From positions 188,839 through 252,838 of the forward strand of contig DDYE01000017.1 in NCBI GenBank assembly GCA_002347855.1: DNA of 64,000 bases. The letters are read 5' to 3'. Both the position numbers and the translations under genes were made by a program. The notes beneath the pieces are model-generated. The model ran no database searches, had not been told where the DNA came from, and saw nothing but the letters and a program-made list of their open reading frames with translations. Every line of letters starts with the position of its first letter. Position 1 is the first letter of the stretch. Positions 8,823 through 31,800 of this stretch are shown here, piece after piece. The DNA comes from Fidelibacterota bacterium UBA2242. Lineage in GTDB: Bacteria > Fidelibacterota > UBA2242.

Positions 8823-8878
8823 AGAAAAATGTTAATTCAAAAATTAAAATGAAATTTGAAATAAAATCGCAGAACAAA

Positions 8879-13252: not shown

Positions 13253-13438
13253 AATATTCTCCTATTTTTTATAAGTTATGGAACTGAACAACAAATAACC
13301 AGACTGCTGAAGCGGAATTTTCAATTTATGGTGATTAGATGCTATTCCATTAGCGACTTATAGATGGTTTACATTACGATGACAGCGATGAATCTGTTTG
13401 GACAAACGAGGGATTTGTTTTAAAATATACTGCTTTTT

Positions 13439-13526
13439 GGAGAGGTGTCCGAGAGGTTTAAGGAGCACGCTTGGAAAGCGTGTGTAGGCTAAAACCCTAC
13501 CCGGGGTTCGAATCCCCGTCTCTCCG
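13439..13526 (+). tRNA. tRNA-Ser (anticodon GGA)
   Basis: acceptor stem GGAGAGG/TCTCTCC, anticodon loop TTGGAAA, long variable arm, T-arm GGTTCGAATCC; no encoded CCA. Confidence 0.85.
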
Positions 13527-13562
13527 CATAATTCACACAATCGTTCATTTTCAAGTTAAATT

Positions 13563-14360
13563 ATGACGCAAAAAGGCAATTATTTCTGTGAAATTTTGGT
13601 TTTTCCTCTGCTTATCTTGCTTTGCAGCTGTGTAGTACCGTCCGCACTCAGGGCTGAGCAGGCGCCTATTCCCGCGCGAACATCCCAGCTGGTTATTGTC
13701 CTTACTCAATCATTTGATGATAATCAAGCGCGATTATATTGTTTTGAACGCCAGGTACCGCTAAATAACTGGCGACTGAGATTGGGACCATTTGCGGCAA
13801 TTATTGGCAAACGCGGCTTGGCTTGGGGACGCGGGTTGCATTCAAACTTACCGGATTATGCGCCAGTTAAAGTCGAAGGTGATAAAAAAAGTCCTGCGGG
13901 AGTATTTCGCTTGGGACCGGTGATAGGACGACCGGAGGAGCTGCCGGATATAAAAATGCCCTATGTTTCAATCATGACCTTAGTTGAATGTGTAGATGAT
14001 CCGCGCTCACGCTATTACAATCAATTAGTGCGACCTGATACTGTCGCCGAGCGGGATTGGAATTCTTCTGAGCGACTCTTCTTACCTGGCATCTGGTACG
14101 ATTTTGGTGTCGTTGTTCAGCATAATTCACCCCTTCCTGTAAGTGGAAGCGGGTCATGTATTTTTCTCCACAACTGGGATAGTCCGTCGGATTCGACCAC
14201 GGGTTGCACGGCGCTGGCGCCTGAGAACCTAACTCAAATTGTTAAATGGTTGGACATATTAAGGCAACCGGTGATTGTACAACTACCGCAATCAATTTAT
14301 GAGAAAGTAAAGCAGAAATGGCATTTACCTGCCATTCATGACTTTCATAGAGAGCCTTGA
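13563..14360 (+). CDS. L,D-transpeptidase (YkuD) family protein
   Basis: catalytic-type motif CIFLHNW...TTGCTAL; hydrophobic N-terminus. Confidence 0.6.
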   Translation: MTQKGNYFCEILVFPLLILLCSCVVPSALRAEQAPIPARTSQLVIVLTQSFDDNQARLYCFERQVPLNNWRLRLGPFAAIIGKRGLAWGRGLHSNLPDYAPVKVEGDKKSPAGVFRLGPVIGRPEELPDIKMPYVSIMTLVECVDDPRSRYYNQLVRPDTVAERDWNSSERLFLPGIWYDFGVVVQHNSPLPVSGSGSCIFLHNWDSPSDSTTGCTALAPENLTQIVKWLDILRQPVIVQLPQSIYEKVKQKWHLPAIHDFHREP

Positions 14361-14439
14361 TTGCTCTCACAGTAAGAACTCATCGCTGCTTATGGAAGTC
14401 CTGGGCTGCCGACATCGTCCTAGGAAATCGAATAAAATA

Positions 14440-15519
14440 TTAGAAATCACACTCTATTAAGTGGTATTTGCGATTCCCAAGACCTATTTCTTCGCCATAG
14501 CGCAGCTGCTCAGTAGCATCGTTGTTAGGATATGCTAGCTGCGCTAAAGTCTTCTGGTGAAAATTTTGGGTCAAATCCAGTACTGCCTGGTCAATAGCAA
14601 CGGGATCAATGCCAGCCAGGACACCGATGTCGGGAATCAGCGGAGTTTGTTTCCCAACCAAGCAGTCACAGTCTTTGGTCATATTTATCATGAAAGTCAT
14701 AAATCCGATTTTGCCTTTTTTCTCTTTGATTATACCGAGGGCATGTTCGGCGATCTGGCGTTGTAAATTGATAGATGTGTTGTCCCAGCGGAAACGAATC
14801 GCGTTCTGGCGGCAAAGGGTTAAGCATTCGCCACAACCGATACAGATAGTTTCATTGATAATCGCAAATTGCTGTCCGACGATAATGGCATCGGAAGGGC
14901 ACCAGTGAGCGCAAATACTACAAGCGGTACATTTATTTTTATCGATGCGTGGTTTGCTTTGGGAGTGCTGAGTCAATTTCCCTTTGCGACTCGCCATGCC
15001 CATACCGATATTCTTGATAGTAGCACCAAGTCCGGCATTAATGTGTCCAGTAGCGTGTGAGAGAACGATTATCGAATTGGCTGAAACGATTTCGGTAGCC
15101 AGAGACACGGTTTTATTTAAAGGGGCATTTATTTCAATTGCGGCCTCATTTTTACCTTTAATTCCATCCGCAATAATAACTGGTGCTCCCACCCGCTCAT
15201 AAGTAAAACCATGACTATAAGCCAATTCCAGATGCGTAACCGCATTATCGCGCACGCTTTTATAGAGCACATTGGTATCGGTTAAAAAAGGGCGCGCACC
15301 TCGCTCTCTTACACAATGGACTATGGGACTAATCAAATCCGGTGAAAGAAATGTATCGCTCTGCTTTTCACCAAAGTGGACCTTGATGGCGGTGTGGTCG
15401 TTAGTTTCGACGAGTTTATCGAGCCCGGCAGTATAAAAAAGTTTAGTCAGGCGTTCCTGACTTTGAGGAAGTGGGGCGGTCGCCTGCAATTTGAGCCAGA
15501 ATACTTTGCTTTGCATCAT
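14440..15519 (-). CDS. DUF362 domain protein with 4Fe-4S ferredoxin domain
   Basis: two CxxCxxCxxxCP motifs (CTACSICAHWCP, CIGCGECLTLC). Confidence 0.75.
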   Translation of the reverse strand: MMQSKVFWLKLQATAPLPQSQERLTKLFYTAGLDKLVETNDHTAIKVHFGEKQSDTFLSPDLISPIVHCVRERGARPFLTDTNVLYKSVRDNAVTHLELAYSHGFTYERVGAPVIIADGIKGKNEAAIEINAPLNKTVSLATEIVSANSIIVLSHATGHINAGLGATIKNIGMGMASRKGKLTQHSQSKPRIDKNKCTACSICAHWCPSDAIIVGQQFAIINETICIGCGECLTLCRQNAIRFRWDNTSINLQRQIAEHALGIIKEKKGKIGFMTFMINMTKDCDCLVGKQTPLIPDIGVLAGIDPVAIDQAVLDLTQNFHQKTLAQLAYPNNDATEQLRYGEEIGLGNRKYHLIECDF

Positions 15520-15660
15520 TTAATCTCTCCAAATAACGCGCAAATTTAAAATTAAATCGGGAGATTGTACAAAGATTGTATTTTGGTTTCCTAATTATCA
15601 GGGGATAGGGTTAAGGTTACTTGAACTTAAAGAAAAATAATTATAGTGATTATGGTATGT

Positions 15661-17529
15661 TCAATTGGAATTTACTATTTGTATTAATCGTTCAGCATCA
15701 GCCTTAATGGTCAGAACTTCGGTATTAACGGTTTTAGGCTGAATTTGCTGTATTTCAGAAAGTCGCCGCAGTGCCTCCATTTTTCTTCCGGTTTTAAGAT
15801 AAATTTCTGCCAGCCAGAGACGTGGCAGCAACAGATTGGGATACATGCACAGAGCCGCCAACAGGTTTTTTTCAGCCTTTTCAAAATCCCTTAACTGGTA
15901 ATAACACAGGCCTTCATTGATATAAATATTTTTGTCATTGAAAGTCGCTTTGGATTTTCGCAATAACGGCAGGGCTTTTTCGGGTCGATTGGTATAAGCA
16001 TAAGCCGAGCCAAGATGAAAAAGCAGTTCGCCATTGTCGGGCAATATTCTTTGAGCCTGGCAATATTTCTCAATACCTTTCTCATAATATCCGGCTTTGA
16101 AATAAGCCTGTCCCTGTCGCCAATTGATACAAGCGCTTCCTTTAAGGACAACATTGAACATGGTATAAACCAGAAATCCTATTGCTACTAATCGTAATAA
16201 GAGCGGATTGCTGAAAGAAATTGTCCCTGGCGTCGTATCCCTGGTTATTTTTATTCCAAGCGAAATCATTCCGATAAAGATAAGGAAAATGATTTGAATG
16301 GCAACGTTGCGCAGAGGATTATCAACGATGGAATGCAGGCAGACGACGGATAACGCAACGCCAAGCGCTTTGACCAGTGGAATTACCAATGAACCGTCTT
16401 CGAGATTAGATTTAAATTGCATCCAATAGCGCCACAGGATTACGAGAAAAACAAGGCAAAAGAGCGCTCCTGTCAAACCGTTTTCTGCTAATACCTGGAG
16501 ATATTCATTATCAGCCTGTTTCATATTGGCCGCATGGCTGAAAAAAGCAATATTTTGAGCGTTGTCGAAAAAATCCGCCTGGTAATTCTGATATTCCACC
16601 GGGAAACGCTGAAAACCGATCCCGCAAACCGGGTGGGATGTGAACATATTCCAAGCAATCCGCCAGACAAACCACCGGCCGGTTACCGAATCCCGATTAA
16701 GATTAATAAGCCCGTAAATAATTGCCAGTCCGATTACAACAACACCTGCGAAAGCAATCGGGGAGATCCAGCGAATCTTGAAAACCTTCTGCCAGGTCAT
16801 TTTTATTGACTTGAAATTGATGATGATGAGACTTCCCAATAATGCCAGCCAGGCGCCGCGGCTTTCAGTCAGTATAAGAACACCGGTTACAATTATTAAT
16901 CCGATGCCGGTAAGGATCTTCCACTTGACTGCTTTGGTAATTTTTAAAATGGCCAGGCCTAATGGAAATATCATGGCCAGATAACCGCCCAAAATATTGG
17001 CATGTCCGAGAGTGCCGACGACCTTCGGACCGAATGTCACAGCTCCGTGCGGATGAATAAAATCCAACCGGCAATATTGCAGGATTCCATAAAGCGCAAT
17101 CAGACCAGCGATTGAAAACAGACCGGCAGCAATGTTTGAAAAATACCGAAAATATTCCTTTTGACTCTTAAAGGAAAGACATTGTATCAGGAAGTAGAAT
17201 ATGACGGTATAAAACGGTAGCCGAAGATTTTCGTAAGGGCTGTGGAAAAATATTCTCGCAAACCATCCCGGAAGCAACAAGCCGGTTACGACGATGACAT
17301 CCAACCAATTAAGATGAATGGTCGTTTCTTTTTGAAATAATTGGATTACAAGAATCGCGGATACTGCTACCTGAAGAAACAGTTCTTTGGGATAGTAAAA
17401 ATCCCACATCATACGGTTGCATATGACCAGCGGAATCAACCAAGCGATAATTCCTAAGCCATAACCGGCCGTCCTGTTACCGGAAGTCCGGAGAAAATTT
17501 TTCACAGTCAGATCATTAGGCCGTATCAA
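15661..17529 (-). CDS. O-antigen ligase (Wzy_C)-like polytopic membrane protein with C-terminal TPR repeats
   Basis: many TM segments, ...TESRGAWLALLGS..., TPR-like C-terminus. Confidence 0.7.
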   Translation of the reverse strand: MIRPNDLTVKNFLRTSGNRTAGYGLGIIAWLIPLVICNRMMWDFYYPKELFLQVAVSAILVIQLFQKETTIHLNWLDVIVVTGLLLPGWFARIFFHSPYENLRLPFYTVIFYFLIQCLSFKSQKEYFRYFSNIAAGLFSIAGLIALYGILQYCRLDFIHPHGAVTFGPKVVGTLGHANILGGYLAMIFPLGLAILKITKAVKWKILTGIGLIIVTGVLILTESRGAWLALLGSLIIINFKSIKMTWQKVFKIRWISPIAFAGVVVIGLAIIYGLINLNRDSVTGRWFVWRIAWNMFTSHPVCGIGFQRFPVEYQNYQADFFDNAQNIAFFSHAANMKQADNEYLQVLAENGLTGALFCLVFLVILWRYWMQFKSNLEDGSLVIPLVKALGVALSVVCLHSIVDNPLRNVAIQIIFLIFIGMISLGIKITRDTTPGTISFSNPLLLRLVAIGFLVYTMFNVVLKGSACINWRQGQAYFKAGYYEKGIEKYCQAQRILPDNGELLFHLGSAYAYTNRPEKALPLLRKSKATFNDKNIYINEGLCYYQLRDFEKAEKNLLAALCMYPNLLLPRLWLAEIYLKTGRKMEALRRLSEIQQIQPKTVNTEVLTIKADAERLIQIVNSN

Positions 17530-17536
17530 ATCAAGT

Positions 17537-20245
17537 TTATTTCATCAGCAGTATTCTCTGGTTCGCTGTGTATTTTGGTGAAATCATCCGCACCAGATAA
17601 ATACCACTGACAACACTTGCCCCGGAATGATTGACGCCATTCCAGGTAATCGTGTAGTTACCCGCGGCATAACTGGTTTTAGTACTCCGCCAGATTTCAC
17701 GACCGGTCAGGTCGTATATACTGATTTGAACGTCAGATGCTTCCGGTAAAGCAAAACTGATGTTCGTTGTAGGATTAAACGGATTGGGATAGTTCGGTTT
17801 CAATTGATATTTATCCGGCAGAATGTCTGCCGTAGCAGGCGGAGCCGGTTGCTTCCCGAATGCGATTGGTTTGGCCAATTGCCAATCGACGGTTTCACCC
17901 ATTTCGAACTGCGCCATTTGGGTCAGACTGTAATCGGCATATTTGGCTTTCAACTGGTTTAAGACTGCCTGCGCCTCTTCTCTATTCCCCAGGTCAATGG
18001 CGTAGATATTGAAAAGGGTGAAGAGGGCTTTGTATTCGGCTTCTGAATCCGGATTCTCGCTGATCACGGTTTTTGACTTTTCGACAGCGGCTTTGAATCG
18101 CTTGCTGGTAATATCTTCACTAATCAATAACTCCAGCGCCATGGTGCGCAGATTCTTCGTACCGACATATTTCTGCAGATGCTCTTTTAGGTCGGTACTC
18201 TTCAATGCTCTTTTAGCAAAAACAGAACGTAGAAATGCCAGCGGGGCGTAGGGTGAATCGGGGTAATTCTGCAAGAGAATATTACAATTCTCTAATGCTT
18301 TGCGATATTGCAGGCTCTGCCAGAGTTCAGTCGTCTCCCGCCAGAGGGTTTCCACCGATTCTGCATCATCAAAAGGTAAGATGTTGATGTTTAAAGCCTC
18401 GGCCAGTAAACCGCCAAGAGTCTTCGCCAGACTGCTACCGCCGCCGGGATCACTGCTAAGGGGATAACGGTTATCAATGCTGGATGTGCCATCGGCATAA
18501 AAATCACTCGGCGGATAATCGCCCCAGAAATTCTTCTGGGCAATGATATTGGAGTAATTTTCTGCCCGGATATGGGCAAACTTATCTGTTGTAATGTCTA
18601 AATATATAGTATTATACCCGGCGTAACCATCCGAACTGAAACACGTTCCCAGGACTGATTCACTATGATCGTGGGTGTATACGGTTGCTGTTTGACCACC
18701 GATTATCCGGTTGTAACCCTGATAATCCTGAGAGCCCGGACCGATTGCCAGTGGACGGCTGTAATGGTCGGCGTCCAGCCCGTAGGTGAAACTGCCCTCG
18801 ATGGTATTGTTGTAGACGCTTGGTTCATCGGTGGCATAAACCTGAATCCCGGCTACTCTGGTCGAGCCACCGGAAGTGATCAGATTGTCGGTCATATCCG
18901 ACAATCCGGCGTAATAACCATAGATGCCACGTGTACAGGCGGTGATGGTATTTGTATTTACAACAGCGCTGTTCGAATTATTCAGATAGGCGCCGTAAGT
19001 GCAATTGCTGATCGTGTTATTGCTCAAAGTTGGAGAACCATAATAAGCATAGACGCCATAAGAACAATTGCTGATGGAGGAGTGACTGATTGACAGACTA
19101 CTGCTACTGGCATAGACGCCATAAGTAGCATTGCTGATATTGGCATACTGAATTGAGCCACTGCTGCCGGATTGATAACGGATTCCGCCCCAGGTGCCGG
19201 AGGAAGCGGTGTAAGTTGAATTATAAGAATTCAGTGTTCCGTAGACGTAGAGATATTTCCCGGATGCGAAAATCATTTGGGTATTGCTTTCGGTTTTGAG
19301 GGTTTTGCCGGAGGGGACGGTGAAATGATCAGCAAAGTTGTGCGTTCCGCGAATATGTACCGATTGCCCGCCGGAAGCGGCAGAGAATGCCGCGCTGATT
19401 GACGGATAGAGTCCATTAATAGTGGAACCGGTCTGGAGACGGATGTCGGGATTGAGGGTGGCGCCGTTTTGAATAGTGATCGTACCGTCTGTGGTTGTTA
19501 TGGTGTGGGAATTGAGATTGACGGTGGCTTTAGACTTTATTTGCAGATTACCACCAGATGGAACAGATACGTTTCCTATTATAGTATGAACCTTGCCACC
19601 TGATCCTATCCATGTTTTGGGATAATTCGAAAGTGTTCCGTAGTGAATAGTTTTGAGTTTTTTAAAATCATGTCCAAGGTTTTGTTTTAAATAATAACAA
19701 TCGTGATTTTTTTCATGTTGATATAATCCACAAGCTCCCCATTTGGAAACGTAGTCTCTACCACCTTCTATAGGACGTGGATAAGAATTTTGAATTTTTC
19801 TAACTGAGTGGTCATCATCTGTATACCATGAATGAGTTGCTTCAAATTCTGAAGCTGTTAAATATGATGGTTGTCCATCATTAGACCATGCCCCATCAGT
19901 CCAATAATAAGTTTCAACATCGTGATCTTCATGGGTTCCAATCCATACTTGTTCGTTCCCTTCAGAAACACTCCAGGCATAACCATGACAGTTATAGGTA
20001 TTGGAAGCGTTTCCAATTAGTACAGCATTTAGTTGATATGGTTCTATATAATAGTACTGTATATACCAGTGGCACCAAGCTATTTCACCATCAGACATCT
20101 CGGTTGGTGTATCAGCAGGAACAGGTCTTCCTTCAGGTGTCCTGACAATTGTATCTCCTGCAAATAAAATATTCTGAAATAGAAAAATAAATAATGTTAA
20201 GAGAAAAGCATATTCGTATATAATTTTATTAATTTTAACATACAT
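17537..20245 (-). CDS. secreted right-handed parallel beta-helix repeat protein with T9SS C-terminal sorting domain
   Basis: signal peptide; repeated NxTIxxCxYGxY beta-helix units; C-terminal KPNYPNPFNPTTNISF...IYLVRM T9SS CTD. Confidence 0.8.
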   Translation of the reverse strand: MYVKINKIIYEYAFLLTLFIFLFQNILFAGDTIVRTPEGRPVPADTPTEMSDGEIAWCHWYIQYYYIEPYQLNAVLIGNASNTYNCHGYAWSVSEGNEQVWIGTHEDHDVETYYWTDGAWSNDGQPSYLTASEFEATHSWYTDDDHSVRKIQNSYPRPIEGGRDYVSKWGACGLYQHEKNHDCYYLKQNLGHDFKKLKTIHYGTLSNYPKTWIGSGGKVHTIIGNVSVPSGGNLQIKSKATVNLNSHTITTTDGTITIQNGATLNPDIRLQTGSTINGLYPSISAAFSAASGGQSVHIRGTHNFADHFTVPSGKTLKTESNTQMIFASGKYLYVYGTLNSYNSTYTASSGTWGGIRYQSGSSGSIQYANISNATYGVYASSSSLSISHSSISNCSYGVYAYYGSPTLSNNTISNCTYGAYLNNSNSAVVNTNTITACTRGIYGYYAGLSDMTDNLITSGGSTRVAGIQVYATDEPSVYNNTIEGSFTYGLDADHYSRPLAIGPGSQDYQGYNRIIGGQTATVYTHDHSESVLGTCFSSDGYAGYNTIYLDITTDKFAHIRAENYSNIIAQKNFWGDYPPSDFYADGTSSIDNRYPLSSDPGGGSSLAKTLGGLLAEALNINILPFDDAESVETLWRETTELWQSLQYRKALENCNILLQNYPDSPYAPLAFLRSVFAKRALKSTDLKEHLQKYVGTKNLRTMALELLISEDITSKRFKAAVEKSKTVISENPDSEAEYKALFTLFNIYAIDLGNREEAQAVLNQLKAKYADYSLTQMAQFEMGETVDWQLAKPIAFGKQPAPPATADILPDKYQLKPNYPNPFNPTTNISFALPEASDVQISIYDLTGREIWRSTKTSYAAGNYTITWNGVNHSGASVVSGIYLVRMISPKYTANQRILLMK

Positions 20246-20261
20246 GACAAAACTCCTTCAA

Positions 20262-20873
20262 TTAATATGTATTTAGAAATTCTTTTGCTTTTTGAATAAC
20301 GAAATTAAGGACCTCGTTATTTTGCAATCGTCCGGTTTTTAACAAGTGCCTTACACCTGGTGATTCAGACAAATCCATTGAAATACCATTATCTTTTCCT
20401 TTGGATTCTAATAACCTTGCAATCGAAAAAGCATTATATTGTATGCCAAAGATGGAGAAAATTTCAGGATGATGAATTTTAAGTTCGTTTTTCTTTAACA
20501 ATTCATTTAAGAGTATTTTTATCTCTGATTTTTTCAGTTTATCAAGAATATTTTCATGTGAGAGTAGGACTTCAATAAAAACAAAGGAAAAAGTAAAAGC
20601 CCCTTTCTTAACAGGTTCCCAATTCACATCATATGTAGATGGATCCATACTTTGGTAAAATTCAATCAATTTCTGTCCGGCATCCTCTCTCTTTACTAGT
20701 TCACGTAATCCATTAAAATCATTATATTCGCGTTCGAAAGCAGCATGAATATCATTATAAATAAGTAGGTAACCAGGATAGCGGCTATTCAAATATTCCT
20801 GAATCAACTCCTCGGTCGGCATAATCGAGAGAGTTGCCTTAGGAATCTGTTCTGCTGCTTTTATTTCATCCAA
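20262..20873 (-). CDS. hypothetical protein; probable true start is the ATG at 20980 (AGGAGG RBS) but that requires a +1 shift in the T8 tract at 20930-20937
   Basis: ORF as given starts at TTG; upstream mini-ORF MKTKKKNSFFFLIVIFFTSL is signal-peptide-like and out of frame by one. Confidence 0.5.
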   Translation of the reverse strand: MDEIKAAEQIPKATLSIMPTEELIQEYLNSRYPGYLLIYNDIHAAFEREYNDFNGLRELVKREDAGQKLIEFYQSMDPSTYDVNWEPVKKGAFTFSFVFIEVLLSHENILDKLKKSEIKILLNELLKKNELKIHHPEIFSIFGIQYNAFSIARLLESKGKDNGISMDLSESPGVRHLLKTGRLQNNEVLNFVIQKAKEFLNTY

Positions 20874-21006
20874 TGGTTTCCCTTCTCTTTGTTCTTGTGC
20901 ATTGATCTTAAAACCACTTATAAAGACGTAAAAAAAATAACTATAAGGAAAAAGAACGAATTCTTCTTTTTTGTTTTCATAGCGACCTCCTAATTAATCT
21001 TATTAA

Positions 21007-22017
21007 TTATTTAATCTTACCATAACGAAGAATAACTCCTTCTGAATTTGCATTTACTGGTTGTACTCCCACTGCCCATCCCAAATATTTATTGATAAAA
21101 CATAAAGAAGCGATATTATTCACATTCATCTCTCCTGGAAGATACTCCCATGTTAGTCCACCATCTGTTGTTTTAATAATTGCATACTTTCCTGCTCCCG
21201 GATTAGTGGCTAACCATCCGTTTAATGGATCGACAAAAAATAATTCATTAACACCTAAAGATGGTGGCCATGATTCTGCTGATCTCTGAATCCATGTATT
21301 TCCCCCATCAGTTGTCCGAAAAAATCCAAGCCAATCGTTATCATTACCTCCAACCCACCCATGGAATTGATCCACAAACTGAATTGATGTTAAATATGAA
21401 ACGTATGGCACGTTTAACTTTCTTATTGTCCATGTTAGTCCAATGTCTGTAGTTGATAGAATTGTTCCGCCAAAACCACACACCCAAATATTTTCTTCAT
21501 CAACTATCGAAATATGTGTAAGAGTATGTACATCTTGAGGTGCTACATCTTGCCAAGTTTCTCCTCCATCCTCAGTTTTAAGCAAAATACCAATACTACC
21601 CAAATCTCCTCTACCCCCTACAACAAAACCGGTGTTTTTATCTAAAAAATTAATATCACGATAACGTCCGCCTTTTAAATCATCATTGTATCCTAGCTCC
21701 CAATTTTTTCCACCATCTATTGTTTTTAAAATGGAATACCTCCCACAAATCCAACCGTTATTCTTATCCACAAAATCGACCGCAAATAAAGTCTCATTAA
21801 CCGGGCTTATCTGATTACCCCATGTTTCGCCCCCATCTTCTGAATTAAGAATTAGACCACTATCTCCAACGACCCAGCCATTATATTCATCTACAAAATC
21901 TACATCATATAACCTTGCCGTTATCCCGCTTTTAATCTTGGTCCAGACATATATCTCATTATAATTACTTATATCTTTACCACATCCAAAGATGATTATT
22001 AAACTAATAAGACACAT
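21007..22017 (-). CDS. BNR/Asp-box repeat protein (Ycf48-like beta-propeller), probable lipoprotein; ORF extends to 22158
   Basis: repeated DGGxTW motifs (DGGETW, DGGKNW, DGGNTW, DGGLTW); lipobox-like IFGC near likely start. Confidence 0.7.
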   Translation of the reverse strand: MCLISLIIIFGCGKDISNYNEIYVWTKIKSGITARLYDVDFVDEYNGWVVGDSGLILNSEDGGETWGNQISPVNETLFAVDFVDKNNGWICGRYSILKTIDGGKNWELGYNDDLKGGRYRDINFLDKNTGFVVGGRGDLGSIGILLKTEDGGETWQDVAPQDVHTLTHISIVDEENIWVCGFGGTILSTTDIGLTWTIRKLNVPYVSYLTSIQFVDQFHGWVGGNDNDWLGFFRTTDGGNTWIQRSAESWPPSLGVNELFFVDPLNGWLATNPGAGKYAIIKTTDGGLTWEYLPGEMNVNNIASLCFINKYLGWAVGVQPVNANSEGVILRYGKIK

Positions 22018-22222
22018 CAATTTATATTTATAAGACCTGAAATGATTAAGAATAATTTGAAAATGGTTACTGATATTAAGAAAAGTATCCATTTGGTATA
22101 GTGGCTGTAGTATTGGTTCAGCGGAAACGCACTTCGCCATTTTCACACTGCCAGCCATCTTAGAAATTCCTTTTCATAACGTTGCCATTATATTCTTATT
22201 ATAAACAATACATAGTAGGAAA

Positions 22223-24916
22223 TTAAAATTCAAGAAAAATTTTCCAATTTTTCTCTGATAACGCTCTAAACGACTTGATTGTCGCTGTTCCGCCGCCAGT
22301 GATCCAGTTATAACCCTGGTAGTTCTGCCCGCCCGGACCGATTGCCAGCGGACGGCTGTAATAGTCGGCATCCATCCCGTAGGTGAAACTGCCCTCGATG
22401 GTATTGTTGTAGACGCTTGGTTCATCGGTGGCATAAACCTGAATCCCGGCTACTCTGGTCGAGTCACCGGAAGTGACCAGGTTGTCGGTCATATCCGACA
22501 ATCCGGCGTAATAACCATAGATGCCACGTGTACAGGCGGTGATGGTATTTTTATCGACAATTGCGTTGTTGGAGTTATATAGATATATGCCATAAGTGCA
22601 GTTGGAAATGGTATTATTCCGGATTGTGGGATTGCTATAATAGGCATATAATCCATAATTCGCATAAGAAATAGTTGAGTTCTCGATGATACAATTTCCA
22701 TCAATTGCCGAATAATAGAAACGGATACCCCACCAGTTACTGCTGCCGGAGCGGGTGAAAGTGGTGTTATTGCATTTAAGACCACCCACAACTCTTAATT
22801 GTATATTCGATCCAAAAGACAAATTGCTGTTATTGAATTCAAATGTAATTCCCGATGGGATAGAGTAATTTTGGCTGAAGGAGATGGTCAGATTATTTGC
22901 GTAAATTCTGTTTCCGCTGGAGGCATCTGTTAGAGCGGAAGCAAGGGATGGATATAAGCCTTTTATCGCCGTTCCATCATACAGGCGGATGTCGGGATTG
23001 AGGGTGGCGCCGGCTTCGACGATGATTGTGCCTCCAGCAGAGGTGATATTATAACCGTTTAGATTTACCGATGCACCGGAACGAATATTAAGTGTCACAC
23101 CGCTACTCACGGTAACATTTCCTATGACAATTATGGTACCGCCCCACGTAGTATTCTGTGAAATAGTACCGGATACACCGTGTGCATAGTTTAATGAAGG
23201 GTCGCCCAAAATATTATACTTTTCAAAATAATCTTTTGCTGTATATTCACTAATTGGATAATAATTGAGAAATTTGATTTTTGCCTCTACCGTCATTTCC
23301 CCAAATGAAGTTTTAATATCATCATATATTGAGGAAAATAAACATTTTTCAAGACGATCATCTGGATACCATTGAGTTGGTCTTGACGAACCCCAAAATC
23401 CAACCGCAGCTTTGTTTGATTCTCTCAACCATGTCTCCCCAAAACATTCACTTCCGTAATCAAATTTACCTGTTAGACATGCAAAACTGAAAATCAGGGG
23501 AAGTTTATAACTGTTGGTTAAATTCCGCACTTGACTCTGAGACAACGGTGGTCCATCTGCCCAAGATGTTTCCGAACCATGTCCGGAATATACCCCAAAT
23601 ATTCTACCGTTATTAAAAGCATTGATCACCTGTGTTGTAGTAGCATTGTAAGTATGACAATATAGTTTATCACTGGTATATCCTTCCGGATCAAGGTAAT
23701 TTGAAATTACATTATTATGAGTTCCTTCGGAAATAGTATAATTATCATTGCTGGCCATAAATACTGCTTTTTTAATCCAGTCAAGTGTACTCCAGTCTTG
23801 GGTCTCATAATCAATCTGTTTATTTACAATGTTGCTTAACTGGGTTGTCGTTTCAACAGAAAATCTGCCAACAAATACATCCGGGAGCCAATCACCATCC
23901 ATCAAAGAATACTTCAAGTCAGATGCTGTATTGCAATAATCTCCTGTAAAGGTGGGAATGTATGCCACATCTCCTACCAGAAGTACATTTTCAACCGGAG
24001 GATCCCAATTGTTATAGGCATTGATGATATAGTTTCTTATTCCATTTGCAGTCTGATCTGCCAAATCGGATTTTTTTACCACCGTTACATCGAATCCCAA
24101 ATTCTCTTTATGAGAGGCAAAAGATGAAATTGTATTGTAAAAATTATCATGACAGATTATTAAAAAAGTGCTCGGCAATTCAGTTGCTGTTTTCATTAAA
24201 ACTGCACTCTTTTGAGATTTATTATTGAAGGAAACGGAATTAACTATTTGATCGAATAACTCTGATTGATACCTTCTGATTTCTAACTGTGTGGAAGATG
24301 ACTTATCGGTATTAAAATACAATTTAAAAGTCACGTTAGTATAGACTTTAAGTTTAGCTTGTACTGGATTGTATTGAATCGGAAATACCGTTATTTGATA
24401 AAGGTTGTGTTTTCGCAATAAACCCAAATCTGTAATTTCGAAAATATTATCAGGATAATATTTGTCAGTTTTATAAATATCATCATCAAATTCAAAGGGT
24501 TTATACTCAGGAGTTTTGCTGACAGGATACTGCAACGGATAAATTTTTGTCATTCCTTTTTCCGCAATATTCAGTTTTTCAACAGTACTGGAAATAATCT
24601 CCACCATTGGATTTGCGTCGTAAGGAAGTTCAACTATTTTTCTGAATACCGGTAGCTGAGGTTTACCTAATTCCGTCGTACTCATACCATCCTCAAATGT
24701 CAATTTAGAGAATATACCATTTTCTGTTTCCAAACGCTCAGAGTAAAAATCATCGACATTGAACTGAATAATGATTTCACCTTCTGATTCAGACAGCACT
24801 TTGATTTCCGTTTTAGGATTGCTCACATCACTAAGCAAGATTTTCTGTTTTGATTCTTGCGCTAATACAAGGGATAATGAAATAAGAATAACAAATGAAA
24901 ATCGTTTGAGTTTCAT
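22223..24916 (-). CDS. peptidase C25 (gingipain-like) family protein with C-terminal parallel beta-helix repeats; lacks a T9SS CTD
   Basis: signal peptide; catalytic-type His (VYSGHGSE) and Cys (FSFACLTGKF); beta-helix region nearly identical to 17537-20245 paralog. Confidence 0.75.
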   Translation of the reverse strand: MKLKRFSFVILISLSLVLAQESKQKILLSDVSNPKTEIKVLSESEGEIIIQFNVDDFYSERLETENGIFSKLTFEDGMSTTELGKPQLPVFRKIVELPYDANPMVEIISSTVEKLNIAEKGMTKIYPLQYPVSKTPEYKPFEFDDDIYKTDKYYPDNIFEITDLGLLRKHNLYQITVFPIQYNPVQAKLKVYTNVTFKLYFNTDKSSSTQLEIRRYQSELFDQIVNSVSFNNKSQKSAVLMKTATELPSTFLIICHDNFYNTISSFASHKENLGFDVTVVKKSDLADQTANGIRNYIINAYNNWDPPVENVLLVGDVAYIPTFTGDYCNTASDLKYSLMDGDWLPDVFVGRFSVETTTQLSNIVNKQIDYETQDWSTLDWIKKAVFMASNDNYTISEGTHNNVISNYLDPEGYTSDKLYCHTYNATTTQVINAFNNGRIFGVYSGHGSETSWADGPPLSQSQVRNLTNSYKLPLIFSFACLTGKFDYGSECFGETWLRESNKAAVGFWGSSRPTQWYPDDRLEKCLFSSIYDDIKTSFGEMTVEAKIKFLNYYPISEYTAKDYFEKYNILGDPSLNYAHGVSGTISQNTTWGGTIIVIGNVTVSSGVTLNIRSGASVNLNGYNITSAGGTIIVEAGATLNPDIRLYDGTAIKGLYPSLASALTDASSGNRIYANNLTISFSQNYSIPSGITFEFNNSNLSFGSNIQLRVVGGLKCNNTTFTRSGSSNWWGIRFYYSAIDGNCIIENSTISYANYGLYAYYSNPTIRNNTISNCTYGIYLYNSNNAIVDKNTITACTRGIYGYYAGLSDMTDNLVTSGDSTRVAGIQVYATDEPSVYNNTIEGSFTYGMDADYYSRPLAIGPGGQNYQGYNWITGGGTATIKSFRALSEKNWKIFLEF

Positions 24917-24934
24917 TTAAACCTCCTTTGTTTG

Positions 24935-26028
24935 TTACCAATTACCATGGGGTCCACCGTATGCGCCCATATCGTTACGGCTGCCGTCATGGTCGTTATA
25001 TTGTTCTAAAGGATTACCGGCATCTATACATGGTGAATTGGGAAGTAAGTGAAAATCTTCCATAGTAAAGTCAACGAATTTCGGATTGGTATTTAAATTG
25101 CCCTCTCCAGGCCAACCATTTTCAATACATGAATAAGTAATATTGAGCTCTGTAACATAAAAGGAGTCAATTTTAACCTGGGAGTTTTCATTGCCCCAGA
25201 GAATATTATTTGTAACATTATCCTTTCCTAATGGTTCCATTCCGACATATAATCCCGCATTGGCGTTGTAGCATATTATATTATTTTCAACCAAAGGTTT
25301 AGGTTTCCCTATTGTTATTCCATTGAATGTATTTTTAATAATAATATTGTTTCTAATCACTGGTTGTAAATAGGCAAGTCCGTCAAATGCCCATGTATCT
25401 ATTCCAGTAATACAATTTCTAATAATATTATTTTGCACCAGGGCTTCAGAATTTTGCAAACAAATACCAAACCCTTCGAAATTTTGAATCAGATTATTCT
25501 GAATTATGATGCTAGAATACCAACAAGTTATACCCATGGCAAGGACCCTACTTTCAATATTATATATCAGCGATGCGTACTCAACTCTGGAAAAAGAAAT
25601 GATAGAGCTACTGTCTGCGGTTTCAGAGAAGTAAATACATCCCCAGTTGTGATCTGACGCTCTTGTAAATATTATTGGATCGGTTTTTGTCCCCTCGGCT
25701 ATGAGTTTGCCATCTACTCGTAAAAATCCAATGTCTATTGTCGAATCGATCCAGTCAAAATCGGCATCATTTATAGTTCCTATCTTGCCCGATTTAAATT
25801 TAATCGTAACACCAGGCTCAATAACAAGCATTTTACCTTGCGGCACGCGGGCAGCACCATCTATATAAAAAGGAGAATCACTCTTCTTAATTGTTCCCCA
25901 TAAATCCTGATATAGATTGTATTCAATATATAAATTGTCTTCATTGTTGATGGGATTCTCTTGACATGCGCCAAGCGTTAGCAAGATTCCCATTAATACT
26001 GTCAGTATCGTTTTCGGGATCATTATCG
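24935..26028 (-). CDS. parallel beta-helix repeat protein, probable lipoprotein (ORF extends to 26149; likely start MIPKTIL...)
   Basis: beta-helix repeats (NNIIRNCITG..., NNIICYNANAGLYV...); signal peptide with LGAC. Confidence 0.7.
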
Positions 26029-26378
26029 TTTCCTCCGATTTGTTGTATTGCCTCAAATTAAAGTTCAAAATATTCCCTTCCACTTTGTTAGACAAAATCA
26101 TCATTCTTAGCGCAATCCCTCCTTCTTCCATTTGCTCAGGAAAAGACAACTACTCGATTTTCCTCGCTTTTTTCATTGAAGACTCTATTTGCTTCTGGCA
26201 TAATATATACACTGGGGGGGTAATGTCAAGAGATTTTTTTAAATTTGGAAAGTTTCAAGACATGGTATCCAGTTGGCAAGCATAAATTGGCTTAAGATCA
26301 TCTTTTTGAGGAGTTAAAGATTTTGATAAAGAGAGTTAGGGAAGTCTATGGGATCGAAATGCGAGCTTTCTCGAGTAG

Positions 26379-26546
26379 TTTAGAATTGACGAGTTAAAAA
26401 AGATGCTACCCATTATGGAGAATGAATTTTATGTTCTTATAGATTATCAAAACCTCCGGGACTTTTTGAACAAAGCCTTTACCTATAGTGTTTATTTCAA
26501 CTACCAGCGTAAATTCCGCTACAAAAGAGGACGCACTCCTATTTAG
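26379..26546 (+). pseudogene. possible C-terminal relic of an IS3/IS481-type DDE transposase
   Basis: 55-codon ORF ending ...LRDFLNKAFTYSVYFNYQRKFRYKRGRTPI, pattern-similar to rve-domain C-terminus (LRDxL...YN..R....G..TP); weak. Confidence 0.3.
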
Positions 26547-26749
26547 ATTATGAAAGAGTATGGCTCAACGAAAATTAATCCAAATTTGCTAGGAATATTT
26601 CCACCCTTGATCTGTGATTACTAAGGGTGGATACCATGTCTTGAAATCAGACATTTTTGCCCATTTTTACTCCCACTTATTTTTTACCTTAAAGCAAGGG
26701 ATAATTGGTTTTCATCGTCGTCAAGCCAAAATTACATATTAATCATTAG

Positions 26750-26885
26750 AGCATCTGCCAGCAGACCGCCAACTATCTTGCCCAGACTACTGCCGCCGCC
26801 GGGATCACTGCTAAGGGGATAACGGTTATCAATGCTGGATGTGCCATCGGCATAAAAATCACTCGGCGGATAGTCGCCCCAGTAG
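26750..26885 (-). pseudogene. orphan fragment of a beta-helix/T9SS protein gene
   Basis: about 100 bp nearly identical to 18427-18530; encodes ...WGDYPPSDFYADGTSSIDNRYPLSSDPGGGSSL... with flanking stops. Confidence 0.7.
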
Positions 26886-27088
26886 TTTTAAAAGTCTTTC
26901 AGATAAAGGGCATTAACCTCTCCTGCCCAGGCGGGATAAGTTTTGGAATGGCACCTATGAATCGAAAATGGGTGATATATCTGATGATTATCATGATGAT
27001 TGTTCCGTAATATATTCGATGACTATTTAATATTTGGACTTCGCCTTTAAGAGTGTAAATTTTGAAGTAATGTTAAGCGGGGTGTTAT

Positions 27089-27772
27089 ATGAAAGTGAAT
27101 CTAATCTTAAAAATCATTCTCCTAAGTTTTTTCATCAACGGCATCTTGGTCCCTGTCTGGGCGCAGAAAAATTATTCGATTGTTGACCCTAAAGCGAAAT
27201 ATGGTGGGTTAATCCTAATACAAACAGACCGTGGTTCAGGATTGGGGCTATTTTTTGAATACTCTCGCCAGAATGCCGATCGTTTGATGCTGCAAGCGAA
27301 TTTTTTGATGATTAAAGGCAGCAACGACTATCCGATCTACGACCCCTACACCGGCTATATCTGGGAACGCAGTGATAAGCGAAGGCTGACCCTCTGCCCG
27401 TTGTACTTAGGTTATAAGAAAGTGCTGTTTGCCGACAAAATCGCCAATAATTTTCGACCGTTTTTTGATATTTCTTTAGGACCGGTGATTGCCTTTGACC
27501 CACCCAATATTCCTGATTTCAGTGACCGTATAAAGCGGATGCGGCTTTTCTACGCGCCGGGCTTTCAGGTCAGCGGCGGTGCCGATTTCTTCTATGGTCC
27601 TGGCACGACCATCTCACTTTATTTTGGGTATGATTTCATCAAGTTTGCGCACAAAATTGACCGACCGGAGGCGTACAACTATCCTGAAGGATATGATACC
27701 AGCAAATTATATCAAGGTCAGCAGAAGTTCAATGGTATCGTCATCAAGATTGGGTTCGGAAAACGCTATTGA
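27089..27772 (+). CDS. hypothetical secreted/outer-membrane protein
   Basis: signal peptide, aromatic-rich, C-terminal ...IGFGKRY. Confidence 0.5.
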   Translation: MKVNLILKIILLSFFINGILVPVWAQKNYSIVDPKAKYGGLILIQTDRGSGLGLFFEYSRQNADRLMLQANFLMIKGSNDYPIYDPYTGYIWERSDKRRLTLCPLYLGYKKVLFADKIANNFRPFFDISLGPVIAFDPPNIPDFSDRIKRMRLFYAPGFQVSGGADFFYGPGTTISLYFGYDFIKFAHKIDRPEAYNYPEGYDTSKLYQGQQKFNGIVIKIGFGKRY

Positions 27773-28494
27773 TGCACGCTTATCAATTTTTTGTGGCGCC
27801 TGAAAATATTACTGGCAATCAGGTTACTCTGACCGGAGAAGAATTCCATCATTGCTGTCGTGTTCTACGCTTTGGAGCAGGAGCACAATTCCAGGTTTTT
27901 GATGGCAGCGGACGCGCCTGGCGGGTACGCCTCGAAAAGGTCGCCAGACAGAGTGCTACGGGAGTAATCGAAGAGGAATTGCCGGTCAATTGTCACAACA
28001 ATCCTATAACTCTGGGCATCGGCTTGACTAAAAGTCGTGCCTTAGAAGAAATTGTGACGACCGCGACGGTATTGGGAGTTCAGACTATTGTTCCGCTGAA
28101 TACCCGGCATGCCGCTTATCAAAATTTCAAGGTAGAACGCTTTCGACGAGTAGCAATAGCGGCTTTAAAGCAGTCAGGTCGTACGGTAATGCCACAAATG
28201 TCATGTCTGCGGACACTGGCAGAATGGCTGGAAATGACCAGGAATTGCCAGCTTAAGGTGCTGGCGGAGCAGAATAGTCCCGAAAATCTTAACAATCTCA
28301 TTCGGAGTGGTAAGCGCTTTACTTCTATTGCTGCAATGGTCGGTCCCGAGGGTGGTTTTAACACCCAGGAACTTTCCCAGTTGAAGGACGCTGGATTCCG
28401 AGTAGTGAATATTTTCCCGGCACGCTTGCGTAGTGAATTAGCTGTGGCAATGTTACTATTTTATCTAAATTTACTTGTTGATATGGAGGATTAA
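27769..28494 (+). CDS. rsmE: 16S rRNA (uracil1498-N3)-methyltransferase RsmE
   Basis: RsmE-like N-terminus and GPEGGF motif. Confidence 0.8.
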   Translation: MMHAYQFFVAPENITGNQVTLTGEEFHHCCRVLRFGAGAQFQVFDGSGRAWRVRLEKVARQSATGVIEEELPVNCHNNPITLGIGLTKSRALEEIVTTATVLGVQTIVPLNTRHAAYQNFKVERFRRVAIAALKQSGRTVMPQMSCLRTLAEWLEMTRNCQLKVLAEQNSPENLNNLIRSGKRFTSIAAMVGPEGGFNTQELSQLKDAGFRVVNIFPARLRSELAVAMLLFYLNLLVDMED

Positions 28495-28495
28495 A

Positions 28496-28840
28496 GTGAG
28501 TGATTGCATTTTTTGCAAAATAGCAGCGGGCGAGTTAGGAACTAATTTCCTTTATCAATCTGACGAAATAGTAGCTTTTCAGGATATTCATCCGCGCGCT
28601 CCGGTTCACATTTTAATTATCCCCCGTCGTCATATTCCCAAAGTCAGTGCGCTTGCCGATCAGGACGCCGAGTTAGTTGGCAAATTGGTAATTGTGGCGC
28701 GTCAAATTGCCCAGGCTGAAGGACTGGATGAGCGAGGTTATCGGTTAGTGTTTAATTGCGGGCCGGATAGCGGTCAGGAAGTGCCGCATATTCATCTCCA
28801 TCTATTAGGGGGACGCCGTCTGGGCTGGCCACCCGGTTAA
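28496..28840 (+). CDS. HIT family (histidine triad) protein; probable GTG start after GGAGGA RBS (ORF begins 28475)
   Basis: CIFCKI N-terminus, HIT motif HIHLHLLGG. Confidence 0.85.
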   Translation: MSDCIFCKIAAGELGTNFLYQSDEIVAFQDIHPRAPVHILIIPRRHIPKVSALADQDAELVGKLVIVARQIAQAEGLDERGYRLVFNCGPDSGQEVPHIHLHLLGGRRLGWPPG

Positions 28841-28855
28841 AATAAAACAATTAAT

Positions 28856-31800
28856 ATGTACATTAGTAAACTTGTCCTGTATGGATTTAAATCATTTCTT
28901 AAACGGACCGAAATTGAGTTCGGGCGGGGAATTACCGCCATTGTTGGACCCAATGGGTGCGGTAAGACCAATATTATTGATGCCATACGCTGGGTAATCG
29001 GTGAACAGAAAGCCAGTATCCTGCGCTCAGATCGTATCACCGATGTGATTTTTAATGGCACAGCGACGCGGCGGCCATTAAATATGTCCGAAGTTTCGCT
29101 GGTCATTCACAATGTCAGTGGGCGCATTCCCATTGCTTACACGGATATTGAAATCACTCGCCGGCTCTATCGTAACGGTGAAAGCGAATATTTTATCAAC
29201 CGCAATCTCTGCCGCTTAAAAGACATAACCGACCTTTTCCTCGATACCGGTATGGGCGCTAATGCCTATTCAATCATCGAATTGAAAATGATTGAAGACC
29301 TCCTCAGCGAAACGCCCGAAGAACGCAAACGCCTGTTCGAAGAGGCCGCTGGCGTCAATAAGTATCGTTTGCAGCGCAAGGCGGCTCTGCGTAAACTCGA
29401 AGCAACCCGCGATGACCTCGTGCGCCTAAATGATATTATTAACGAAGTCGAAAATAGTGTTAAAAATTTGAAGCGCCACCTGCAGCGTTATGAAAAATAC
29501 CAGGAAATAACTCAGAAACTAATCGAAGCCGAAGTTCAGCTCGCCAGTCGGCGCATCTTTGATTTACGCCAAAAATATCTCCCGCTTCAAGAACAAATCA
29601 GCGCTAAACAAACGCGTTTAAATTGGGTGAATGAAAACCTGCAGCAGCTGGAAACCGAATTTCAGCAAAAAAACACTCAGTGGCATAGTCAAGAAGAAAT
29701 ACTCGAGAATAAACGCCGCGAGCTCGAAGCCGCTACAGGCTCCCTCAACCAGAGCAAAACCGAAGGACTCTTACTCAACGAACAACTCCGTCACCATCGT
29801 CAGAACCTCAGCAAACTCGAGAACAACATCGCCAGTTTGCGCTCTAATCGCGAATCATCATTAAAACGACAAGAGCAAATTGGTCAAGAAATCAACGAAC
29901 TGCAGACTCTGCTAGAGAGTAAACGGGCAACTTTTAAGCAACTTGCAGGGGAGAGTGAAAGTGTATTGCAGCAAAATCGCATCATCACCGCCGAAATTCA
30001 GCAGTTGCAGGATGAGCGTTTCAATTTGATGCGAGCGCAAGCTGAACAAACTGCCCGGCAAAATAGCCTAAAGGAAAATATCCAACATCGGCAAAATGAA
30101 CTCAAGGCGCTCAAACAGCAAATTAATAACCTGACTGAGCAACAGTCGGCGCTGAACCAAAAAGCGACTGACCAGCAGAGCAGGTTAACTGCTTTGAAGG
30201 AACAATTATCGGTAAGCAAAAAGCAGCTTGCGGATGCCGAGCAACAGCAAAATGATTTTGAAGCAAAACAAAATAAACTGCGCGAGGAAATTCGTAAGAT
30301 AGATTCAGAACTGGACCGCCTCTCCAATCGAGTTCAATTTTATAGTAGCATTATTCAATCGAAGGAAGGCTTCGGTCCAGGATTACAATATGTATTAGAC
30401 CACTTGCCTGAATTTCCCGGTATCCGCGGGGCGCTATCGGATTTAATCGCCGTTGAGCCGCGCTATTATTTAGCCGTTGAAGCCGTCCTTAAAGACATCT
30501 CCCGCCTATTAATAGCCGATGACCAATCTGCTGCTCTGACTGCCATCGCTAAATTGAGTATCCAGCAAAAAGGACGCGTGTCGATCATTCCACTCGACGC
30601 CAATTTTCAGAATAATAACCCGAAACCGCCTGACAATCAATCTCTGGAACCACTCGTAAAATTCCTGCAATGCACTCGTGAACTTGAGCATTTGAAGGAC
30701 TTCCTTTTTCAGAATGTATATTGTTGTCCGGATGAGGATTTTGATGAATTGGTCAGAAACCGCCAGTTGAAGAATATTTCTATTGTCAGTGATAAGGGAC
30801 GTTTTCGAGACGGTAGCGGCATTTTCAGCGGTGGCGGGGAAACGACTGAAGCCCAGCTGCTCATTGGTCGCAACCAGCGTCTGGCGAGTTATGAAAAGGA
30901 ATATGCCCGCGCTCGTGAGCAGCGCGCTGAACTCCAGCAAAAACTAAATCAGGTTCAGCAGGAAATTAATACTCTCGCGAAGCTACGGCAAACCACCCAA
31001 GCAGAAAATAATCGCCTGACTCAGGCTATCAATCGCCTCACCGAAGAAATCCAGACTCAGCAAACCAGTTTGCTCCAGATTAATAGTCGCTTACAGTCGC
31101 TCAACGAGCAAAAAGTTGCCATTCAGGCAATGATTGAGAGCTTCACCGAAAAACTCCAGAAAGAGTTGCCTGTCGAAGGTCAGACTTCTGAAAAAGTTGC
31201 CCACATTGACGAACTATTAGAGCAGAAAAAAGCCTTTTTACTTCAAATTAAAAACCAATTCGATGAATGGAATAACCGCTCCCAAAATGCCCGCATTGAA
31301 TTGATCAATTTAGAAAACCGCTATCGCAATCTTAGCGATAGCCGTACCGCCCTAATCAGTAACTTGCAATATACCGAAAAGCAGCTGCAGCAGACTGAAA
31401 CCGAAAAGGTTACCCTGCAGACGACCATCACGCAACTCGAACAACAGTTGTCTCAGAATGCTCAGCAGACCGAACAGTTAAGCCAGACCGTTAATCAGCT
31501 CAACACAGAATATTTTTCGTTGCAAACAGAGTTTCAAAGCACACGCCAATCCTTGGATGAACTTAACCAAAAAATAAATGTCCTACGCAATGAAAAAGAG
31601 CAGATTATCCAGGAATTAAAAACTCTGGAACTGGATAAATCCGCCTACTTAGCCACCGAACGCGAAATCAGCACCGTCTTGATGCAGAAGTATAATCGTC
31701 AGGTTACAGCTGAATTGAATGCTGATTTGCCTTCGGAAGCTGAAGCAATTCAAAGTGTAGAACGGCAGAAACACCAGCTGGAGTTGATTGGTACCGTCAA

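Follow-up and report, generated by a model that had tools for sequence, protein, structure and literature searches.

In Helicobacter pylori, RecA-dependent, non-reciprocal transfer of segments between the diverged paralogs babA/babB and sabA/sabB yields chimeric surface proteins and mosaic identity profiles; this conversion has been shown experimentally, alters adhesin specificity and occurs at a measurable frequency. Antigenic variation from silent cassettes is represented by pilE/pilS of Neisseria, vlsE of Borrelia and msp2 of Anaplasma. In Porphyromonas gingivalis, identical repeats within and between the rgpA, kgp and hagA genes underlie domain rearrangements, mosaics and assembly breaks, and at PG0410/PG0411 a gene with a sorting domain stands beside a differently built paralog (PMC5266723). 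The present analysis concerns a stretch of 64,000 nucleotides (nt) from Fidelibacterota bacterium UBA2242 (assembly GCA_002347855.1, contig DDYE01000017.1, positions 188,839 to 252,838; hereafter the window), in which two diverged genes for beta-helix proteins share a nearly identical tract of about 220 base pairs (bp). Gene A encodes a beta-helix protein with a type IX secretion system (T9SS) sorting domain and gene B a C25 cysteine peptidase followed by a beta-helix. Very probably, the tract in gene B is a patch of A-lineage DNA acquired by gene conversion. The coordinates of all features are collected in Table 1.

The two tract copies can be aligned without gaps and agree at 212 of 220 positions (96.4%), with perfect-match runs of up to 88 and 69 nt between the eight differing sites, and each copy lies in frame in its gene. 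The near-identical ~220-bp tract that the original prediction had placed in two diverged genes is thereby confirmed. Its estimate of ~70% identity for the flanks fits the near flanks (0.67-0.69), but not the far flank, where identity is only about 0.51. In a codon-aware sliding window, the A/B nucleotide identity amounts to 0.93-1.00 in the tract (third positions 0.90-1.00), to 0.57-0.83 immediately beyond it, and to 0.38-0.72 in the distant homologous flank (third positions 0.05-0.55). A uniform identity along the whole alignment, which had been named as an observation that would speak against conversion, is thus not found; instead a sharp plateau stands above diverged flanks. Averaged per segment, the identity between A and B is 0.96 in the tract, 0.69 in the near 5' segment, 0.67-0.69 in the near 3' segment and 0.51 in the far 5' segment, and at third positions it is 0.96 in the tract versus 0.30-0.44 in the flanks. 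Because the elevation extends to synonymous and third positions, selection at the protein level does not explain the near-identity.

The significance of the plateau was evaluated by shuffling the columns of the A/B alignment 20,000 times, with the fewest differences per 220-nt window as the statistic. Seven differences were observed versus a shuffled minimum of 46 and a mean of 65 (0 of 20,000 shuffles), and the outcome was again 0 of 20,000 when the shuffling was limited to the better-conserved amino acids (aa) 396-522. The wider 378-nt segment of gapless A/B homology is a conserved beta-helix segment family-wide, with the patch inside it, and in this wider segment any A-type and B-type members of the family share 75-77% nucleotide identity. 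The appropriate baseline for the tract segment is, as a consequence, about 75% between helix types, rather than about 50%.

The direction of transfer was deduced with the help of four outgroup genes on three other metagenomic contigs, i.e. P0002 (contig L009), a P0004-like gene and P0033 (both on contig L019) and P0006 (contig L020). P0002 is the full-length ortholog of gene A in another species (73% aa identity), and its contig shares the BNR gene and the small upstream genes with the window. The identity between A and P0002 is the same in the tract (0.753) as in the 5' flank (0.751), also at third positions (0.56 versus 0.54), whereas B is much closer to P0002 in the tract (0.740) than in the flank (0.512). 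Over the 5' helix, P0033 and P0006 are the nearest partners of B (0.70-0.73) and P0002 is that of A (0.77), while A and B share 0.51. Inside the tract, in contrast, A and B share 0.96, and B shows 0.75 identity to P0033, 0.76 to P0006 and 0.84 to the P0004-like gene, the last value being near that of A (0.85), so that B takes over the distances of A. In the near 5' segment B is closer to P0033 (0.78) than to A (0.69), and in the near 3' segment (aa 504-520) the identities of B to P0033 (0.80), A to the P0004-like gene (0.96) and A to P0006 (0.90) all exceed that of A to B (0.69). The trees are incongruent in the same sense, with B grouping with P0033 and P0006 in both flanks and with A inside the tract. 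Since the distance of A to its ortholog is unchanged in the tract and only that of B is altered, the A lineage would be the donor and B the recipient, and judged by these distances the direction of transfer is from an A-lineage gene to gene B. The synonymous step, the incongruent phylogenies of tract and flanks and the unchanged distance between donor and ortholog together uphold the proposal of gene conversion between paralogous surface-protein genes.

The tract is thus best described as the probable product, at a high level of confidence, of ectopic (interparalog) gene conversion, a non-reciprocal patch of homologous recombination from gene A, or an A-lineage allele, into gene B. In the proposed mechanism, some 175-220 nt of beta-helix DNA from gene A, or from a very close A-lineage allele, would have replaced the homologous stretch of B; the gapless replacement indicates a homologous exchange and not an insertion. 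Strand exchange of the RecA type may have been seeded where the segment was already near-identical before the event, as suggested by the B-type proxies P0033 and P0006, which match A exactly over runs of 36 and 26 nt at positions 18779-18814. The heteroduplex would then have been resolved or repaired towards the A sequence, and gene B would afterwards have gathered mostly B-specific, mostly non-synonymous changes. Six of the eight residual differences are B-unique states and five are non-synonymous; in gene sense and from A to B they read C>A, T>C, A>G, G>A, C>A, C>T, C>T and A>G. The patch would represent one episode in a longer recombination history of a tandemly arrayed family of secreted proteins.

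With respect to its age, the main event followed the split from the P0002 species and preceded the present clonal population, since the tract copies have diverged by 3.6% whereas assemblies of this population are identical over 13 kb or differ at three tract sites in 22.7 kb. The event had been predicted to be recent, which is appropriate relative to the species split, but not relative to a population in which the assemblies are near-identical and the copies differ at eight sites. A number of points weigh against conversion from A into B as formulated here. The 3' boundary is soft, with aa 478-520 highly conserved family-wide and a near 3' segment of 17 codons, and the outgroups comprise four genes on three metagenomic contigs, the species relations of which are not independently known. 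In view of the eight differences, the donor could have been an unsampled A-like allele or a paralog elsewhere in the genome. The tract comparisons rest on assemblies, and a few of the eight sites could reflect the consensus chosen by an assembler at this level of data.

A second region of the window shows a comparable mosaic. The apparently intergenic region upstream of the 404-aa gene contains an orphan gene relic of about 51 in-frame codons, homologous to aa 572-634 of gene A, with a stop codon directly upstream, no start codon, and a terminal stop codon after the residues ALMINM. The core of the relic (26795-26886, 92 nt) is 0.97 identical to its partner in gene A, compared with 0.82-0.86 between gene A and other family members at this segment, and the identity between relic and A drops to 0.72 in the adjoining 61 nt. 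By these values the relic core is a putative second mosaic patch, linked to gene A, and as such it lends independent support to recombination as the origin of the tract. The contig L012 (Logan SRR13427971_13386, positions 1-1598) follows the window from 27444 to 26795, passes through the 92-nt core and continues in gene A from 18521 to 17492; this join would reflect the loss of 8.35 kb by deletion between the direct repeats, or else a chimera produced by k-mer assembly. The contig L018 (Logan SRR30978041_8186), which derives from a strain of 97% identity, ends inside the relic repeat, with its position 1 at about window position 26855. An assembly break caused by the repeat could account for this end, and the contig shows that the relic is present in a diverged strain. 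The upstream gene in contig L017 was considered as the source of the relic and rejected, being an unrelated T9SS cargo; a better clue to the origin of the relic is found in L019, where a homolog of the 404-aa gene directly follows the truncated P0033.

Seven loci from five independent samples or assemblies (found in NCBI GCA_002327805.1 and in JGI 3300028916, 3300002821 and 3300002703; one contig measures 1.35 Mb) match the window at 100% over 13 kb and carry the same eight copy-specific tract differences. Proteins A and B are unchanged on 12 contigs each, and the tract core is present in exactly two copies per assembly. A comparison of strains had been recommended; the same tract structure recurs in these independent assemblies, and for this reason the tract is very unlikely to be a mis-assembly. 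Two further loci deviate in a mirror-image manner. In 22,694 nt, L007 (JGI 3300028923, a contig of 1.67 Mb) departs from the window solely at the three discriminating sites of gene A; each of these has the nucleotide of gene B, in two cases one that is B-unique in the family. L011 (GCA_029216075.1) departs from it solely at the three partner sites of gene B, all of which have the nucleotide of gene A, in one case an A-unique one. This mirror pattern, which is beyond the reach of independent point mutation, would be accounted for if conversion were still active, with the tract as a hot spot at which patches of 18-175 nt move both ways between A and B in the present population, thereby changing two beta-helix residues (I456V and G460D in A numbering). 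We regard ongoing conversion as possible rather than probable. Identical stretches of 88 and 69 nt enclose the three-site bubble, which can be collapsed by a de Bruijn assembler with k < ~88, and random collapse predicts one assembly with both copies in the B state and another with both copies in the A state, precisely as seen. In addition, each variant occurs on a single contig, no further polymorphism is present in 22.7 kb, and haplotype scans with a 130-nt IUPAC pattern and a 30-nt exact core gave no match in a metagenome contig collection that evidently does not contain this organism.

A more elaborate reading combines gene A, the sorting-domain-less gene B and the relic into a working local exchange system, in which bidirectional short patches would move at a rate far above that of point mutation, exposed beta-helix residues would be varied, a deletion would act as a switch to an exportable 1260-aa fusion, and the pairing of a full-length gene with a copy lacking the C-terminal domain (CTD) would be selected. 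An exchange rate of this order would be implied by the mirror-image variants L007 and L011. The tract copies form a direct repeat with a shared reading frame, 3.6 kb apart (offset 3597 = 3 x 1199); a crossover between them would remove the BNR and 203-aa genes, and is predicted to fuse the C25 head of B to the TPR/sorting tail of A in a protein of 1260 aa with no internal stop. No such fusion allele was found in either of the protein searches. If the exchange system were true, the recurrence of a full-length/CTD-less pair in the unrelated contig L019, with another protease head and the same stop point, would be a selected architecture and not the result of decay. We consider such a system unlikely.

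Less probable still is a single crossover or tail replacement, by which the whole 3' end of B from the tract onward would have become A-like and would later have been shortened. Such a history could explain that B ends 17 codons past the homology, without the tail that is present in its closest relative P0075, and that downstream of the tract the identity between B and P0002 (0.77-0.80) is as high as that between A and P0002. However, in aa 504-520 gene A is much closer to the P0004-like gene and to P0006 than to B, whereas B resembles P0033, which has the same stop point. These values suggest that the 3' end of B is of the B type and was not acquired recently from A, in a segment that is short and conserved and as such offers a weak test.

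Functional constraint at the nucleotide level, by which an embedded RNA element, a regulatory site or an antisense gene would keep the copies alike, is hardly credible. The tract is G+C-rich (0.54 versus 0.42 in the window), its RNA folds somewhat better than shuffled sequences (z = -2.5), and an open reading frame (ORF) of 142 aa lies antisense to the tract copy in gene A (18665-19093, plus strand). On the other hand, the third-position identity between A and P0002 is as ordinary in the tract as in the flank (0.56 versus 0.54), and this ordinary synonymous divergence implies that the tract sequence has been free to drift between species. Synonymous conservation across the family is only modestly raised in the tract, with higher peaks elsewhere in the tail. 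Three candidate elements were rejected individually: the antisense ORF, since no plus-strand ORF of at least 40 aa covers the copy in gene B; an RNA element, with no match to an Rfam family and a fold z of only -2.5; and a family-wide synonymous 'homology box' before the truncation point, for which conservation of ~0.70 versus 0.5-0.6 is surpassed by other peaks in the tail.

Finally, although the source is metagenomic and repeats do disturb the assemblies (the relic repeat is where L018 breaks off, and through it L012 links the relic to the A tail), an assembly artefact by collapse or mis-joining of two diverged paralogs can be given next to no weight, as the eight copy-specific differences recur in all seven loci identical over 13 kb, both genes are in frame, the identity at the edges declines gradually, and an identity of 212/220 cannot be produced by an assembler from sequences that are ~75% identical.

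Table 1. Positions of the tract copies, the relic and neighbouring features in the window
Feature	Position	Strand	Remarks
Tract, copy in gene A	18736-18955	minus	codons 431-503; beta-helix turns NTITACTRGIYGYYAGLSDMTDNLITSGGSTRVAGIQVYATDEPSVYNNTIEGSFTYGLDADHYSRPL
Nearly perfect core of the tract copy in gene A	18779-18953	minus	
Tract, copy in gene B	22333-22552	minus	codons 789-861; putative A-lineage patch in B-type beta-helix
Wider gapless A/B nucleotide homology	18684-19061 vs 22281-22658	minus	blastn 84.9% over 378 nt
Discriminating sites, gene A	18867, 18880, 18884	minus	gene B partners 22464, 22477, 22481
Gene A, 902 aa	17537-20245	minus	predicted donor lineage of the tract
Gene A, parts			signal-peptide-like N-terminus; head aa ~26-202; right-handed beta-helix aa ~203-560; TPR/YfiO-like aa ~646-773; T9SS type-A sorting domain aa 819-899
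Gene A partner of the relic patch	18441-18532	minus	codons ~572-602, FWGDYPPSDFYADGTSSIDNRYPLSSDPGGG
Gene B, 897 aa	22223-24916	minus	predicted recipient of the tract
Gene B, parts			signal peptide, C25 propeptide, C25 cysteine-peptidase domain, beta-helix aa ~583-880, then 17 unrelated residues
Older chimeric junction in gene B	23058-23170	minus	about aa 583-619
Genes between the two repeats	20262-22158	minus	
203-aa protein of unknown family	20262-20873	minus	
BNR/Ycf48-like beta-propeller, 383 aa	21007-22158	minus	
Upstream beta-helix lipoprotein-like gene	24935-26149	minus	404 aa from TTG; 362 aa in several assemblies
Orphan gene relic	26727-26887	minus	inside apparent intergenic 26150-27088
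T9SS-sorted phosphodiester glycosidase/Golvesin-C protein	43936-45702	minus	
Alpha-amylase family protein	45617-48025	minus	listed ORF overlaps next by 86 nt
Type I pullulanase	48043-50568	minus	

Domain searches agree with the predicted labels of both genes, i.e. a NosD/beta-helix, TPR-like protein with T9SS sorting domain for A, and a C25 propeptide, C25 peptidase and beta-helix for B. Gene A matches the Pfam families NosD (3.4e-13), FlgD_ig (1.9e-9) and Por_Secre_tail (PF18962; 32 bits, cutoff 27), and with 39.9 bits to TIGR04183 (cutoff 23) it classifies as a T9SS type-A cargo. Its head (aa ~26-202) has no sequence match in Pfam, NCBIfam or the PDB. Conserved Cys and His residues (NCHGYAW ... 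DHSV) are present in the head region (window 19640-20170), which is located where relatives have their protease domains; the head may be a small uncharacterised peptidase. In gene B, Pfam identifies Peptidase_C25 (PF01364; 4.7e-76, 256.9 bits, cutoff 23), Propeptide_C25 (PF08126; 1.2e-23, 83.7 bits, cutoff 22) and Beta_helix (1.1e-16), and neither a TPR region nor a Por_Secre_tail or other T9SS sorting domain was detected with Pfam and TIGR04183. Gene B should, as a matter of annotation, not be taken automatically as a surface protein. An assignment of gene B as the T9SS sortase PorU was rejected, with scores of 115.7 bits versus a cutoff of 420 bits and 62.5 versus 450 (NF033707 and NF052324, respectively).

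The protein homology between A and B is confined to aa 203-522 of A and aa 583-880 of B, with 56% identity. It ends at aa 522 of A, where the sorting-domain-less genes B and P0033 stop, the ends of these two lying only a few residues from a common module point (about aa 520 of A). The closest relative of gene B is P0075 on contig L017, a C25 gene of 1153 aa with a full tail including the sorting domain. Upstream of the older junction gene B is orthologous to P0075, and downstream its helix is of the P0033/P0006 type. The nucleotide homology of 79% between L017 and the window ends at position 23058, corresponding to about aa 619 of B, and the A-like protein homology begins at aa 583. Residues 582-880 of gene B are 72-73% identical to the helices of P0006 and P0033, with a gapped, poor match to P0075. 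By these comparisons gene B is an older chimera of a C25 head and a foreign beta-helix. The G+C content is 0.54 in the tract (18736-18955), 0.42 in the window and 0.35 in the C25 head of gene B (23110-24916), and the two parts of the gene B chimera show a marked difference in composition.

Proteins with protease heads of the M10 (P0003), S8 (P0004, P0006 and P0011) and C1 (P0005 and P0007) kinds carry the tail of gene A at 55-80% protein identity, and a more distant form of it follows M36 (P0019) and C25 (P0054 and P0058) heads. This beta-helix/TPR/T9SS-sorting tail has been joined by recombination to protease heads of at least five kinds, namely C25, S8, C1, M10 and M36. P0006 holds the position of gene A, upstream of a Wzy_C/TPR gene. 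Contig L019 (JGI 3300013123 Ga0172368_10008970, positions 1-10084), from another organism, has three genes of the family within 10 kb. They are a partial A-type tail, one full-length gene with S8, beta-helix, TPR and sorting domains that is one residue off P0004, and P0033, which combines an S8 head with a beta-helix and lacks the CTD, so that a full-length/CTD-less pair is present. In L009 a beta-helix relic is located upstream of the BNR gene. Arrangement in tandem, exchange of heads, truncation and relics are thus typical of this beta-helix-tail family as a whole. A search of genome contigs with the 151-aa tract region returned only remote beta-helix matches from archaea, planctomycetes and actinobacteria, and the tract core had no match among viral contigs, hence no sign of a phage origin.

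The 404-aa gene upstream of gene B has a syntenic counterpart upstream of P0075 in L017, and a homolog of the 404-aa gene follows P0033 in L019. Five diverged direct repeats of 35 nt, spaced 120-270 nt apart, are present inside the BNR/Ycf48-like gene (21148-21854) and are probably the DNA trace of Asp-box beta-propeller blades. A second cluster of secreted enzymes lies on the minus strand at 43936-50568. The genes called in other assemblies at the position of the two window ORFs in 8849-10247 show a faint Pfam match to a Y1 (IS200/RAYT-like) transposase and a DUF2851 match, and a small GIY-YIG gene is called near them. A tRNA-Ser (GGA) is called by ARAGORN at 13439-13527 and is absent from the Rfam gathering-threshold list, in which the tRNA-Leu at 37781-37864 is the only tRNA. 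The nearest named relatives of the phosphoglycerate kinase, with 70-76% identity, are metagenome-assembled genomes of Marinimicrobia/Neomarinimicrobiota.

Several known systems share features with the A/B locus. As in diversity-generating retroelements, there are two near-identical repeats of ~100-200 nt, of which one is close to the 3' terminus of a gene for a surface protein. Unlike in these elements, the mismatches are not limited to adenines of one copy, and both copies are in-frame homologous coding sequence. A retroelement was rejected on this basis, with adenines in gene sense at two of the eight differing sites if A is the template or three of eight if B is, and no reverse-transcriptase domain was found among the locus genes examined with Pfam. 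A shufflon or invertible cassette was likewise rejected: region 12000-30000 contains no inverted repeat pairs of at least 30 nt, and all repeats are direct. Silent-cassette systems resemble the locus in the presence of truncated, non-exportable paralogs and relics beside a full-length, expressed gene and in the exchange of short patches. In contrast to cassette donation, the main transfer here would have run from the full-length gene to the truncated copy, and the locus has two partners only, without a cassette array, a specialised cis element or a demonstrated high-frequency variation. With one truncated paralog, one relic and two single-contig variants that are possibly artefacts, a silent-cassette variation system at this locus is not supported. 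The probable transfer of a segment between diverged paralogs is shared with babA/babB and sabA/sabB.

The locus does not point to a new mechanism, gene conversion being a familiar route in the evolution of bacterial surface-protein families; it does provide a clean and well-polarised putative case of interparalog conversion in an uncultivated, Marinimicrobia-related lineage of the FCB group. For evolution, it illustrates a route by which repertoires of secreted proteases may diversify, leaving truncated, sorting-domain-less copies and relics in tandem arrays. For assembly, it illustrates that contigs are broken or turned into chimeras by such repeats, which can also give rise to spurious strain variants. 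By analogy, the closest documented precedent is the rgpA/kgp/hagA family of P. gingivalis. The two differ in the nature of the shared module, which is a right-handed beta-helix with TPR-like repeats here and consists of cleaved adhesin (CAD/DUF2436) domains there, in the extent of the near-identical stretch, which is 220 nt here and kilobases there, and in the C25 gene, which here has no sorting domain. The host also differs, as it is uncultivated, related to Marinimicrobia and found in engineered or environmental samples instead of being a host-associated pathogen, so that immune evasion is no obvious driver. In common are C25 peptidases and partner proteins with export by the T9SS (predicted here for A), C-terminal non-catalytic modules that paralogs share as near-identical or identical DNA, and mosaic variants that are incongruent with strain phylogeny and whose repeats break automated assemblies (PMC5266723).

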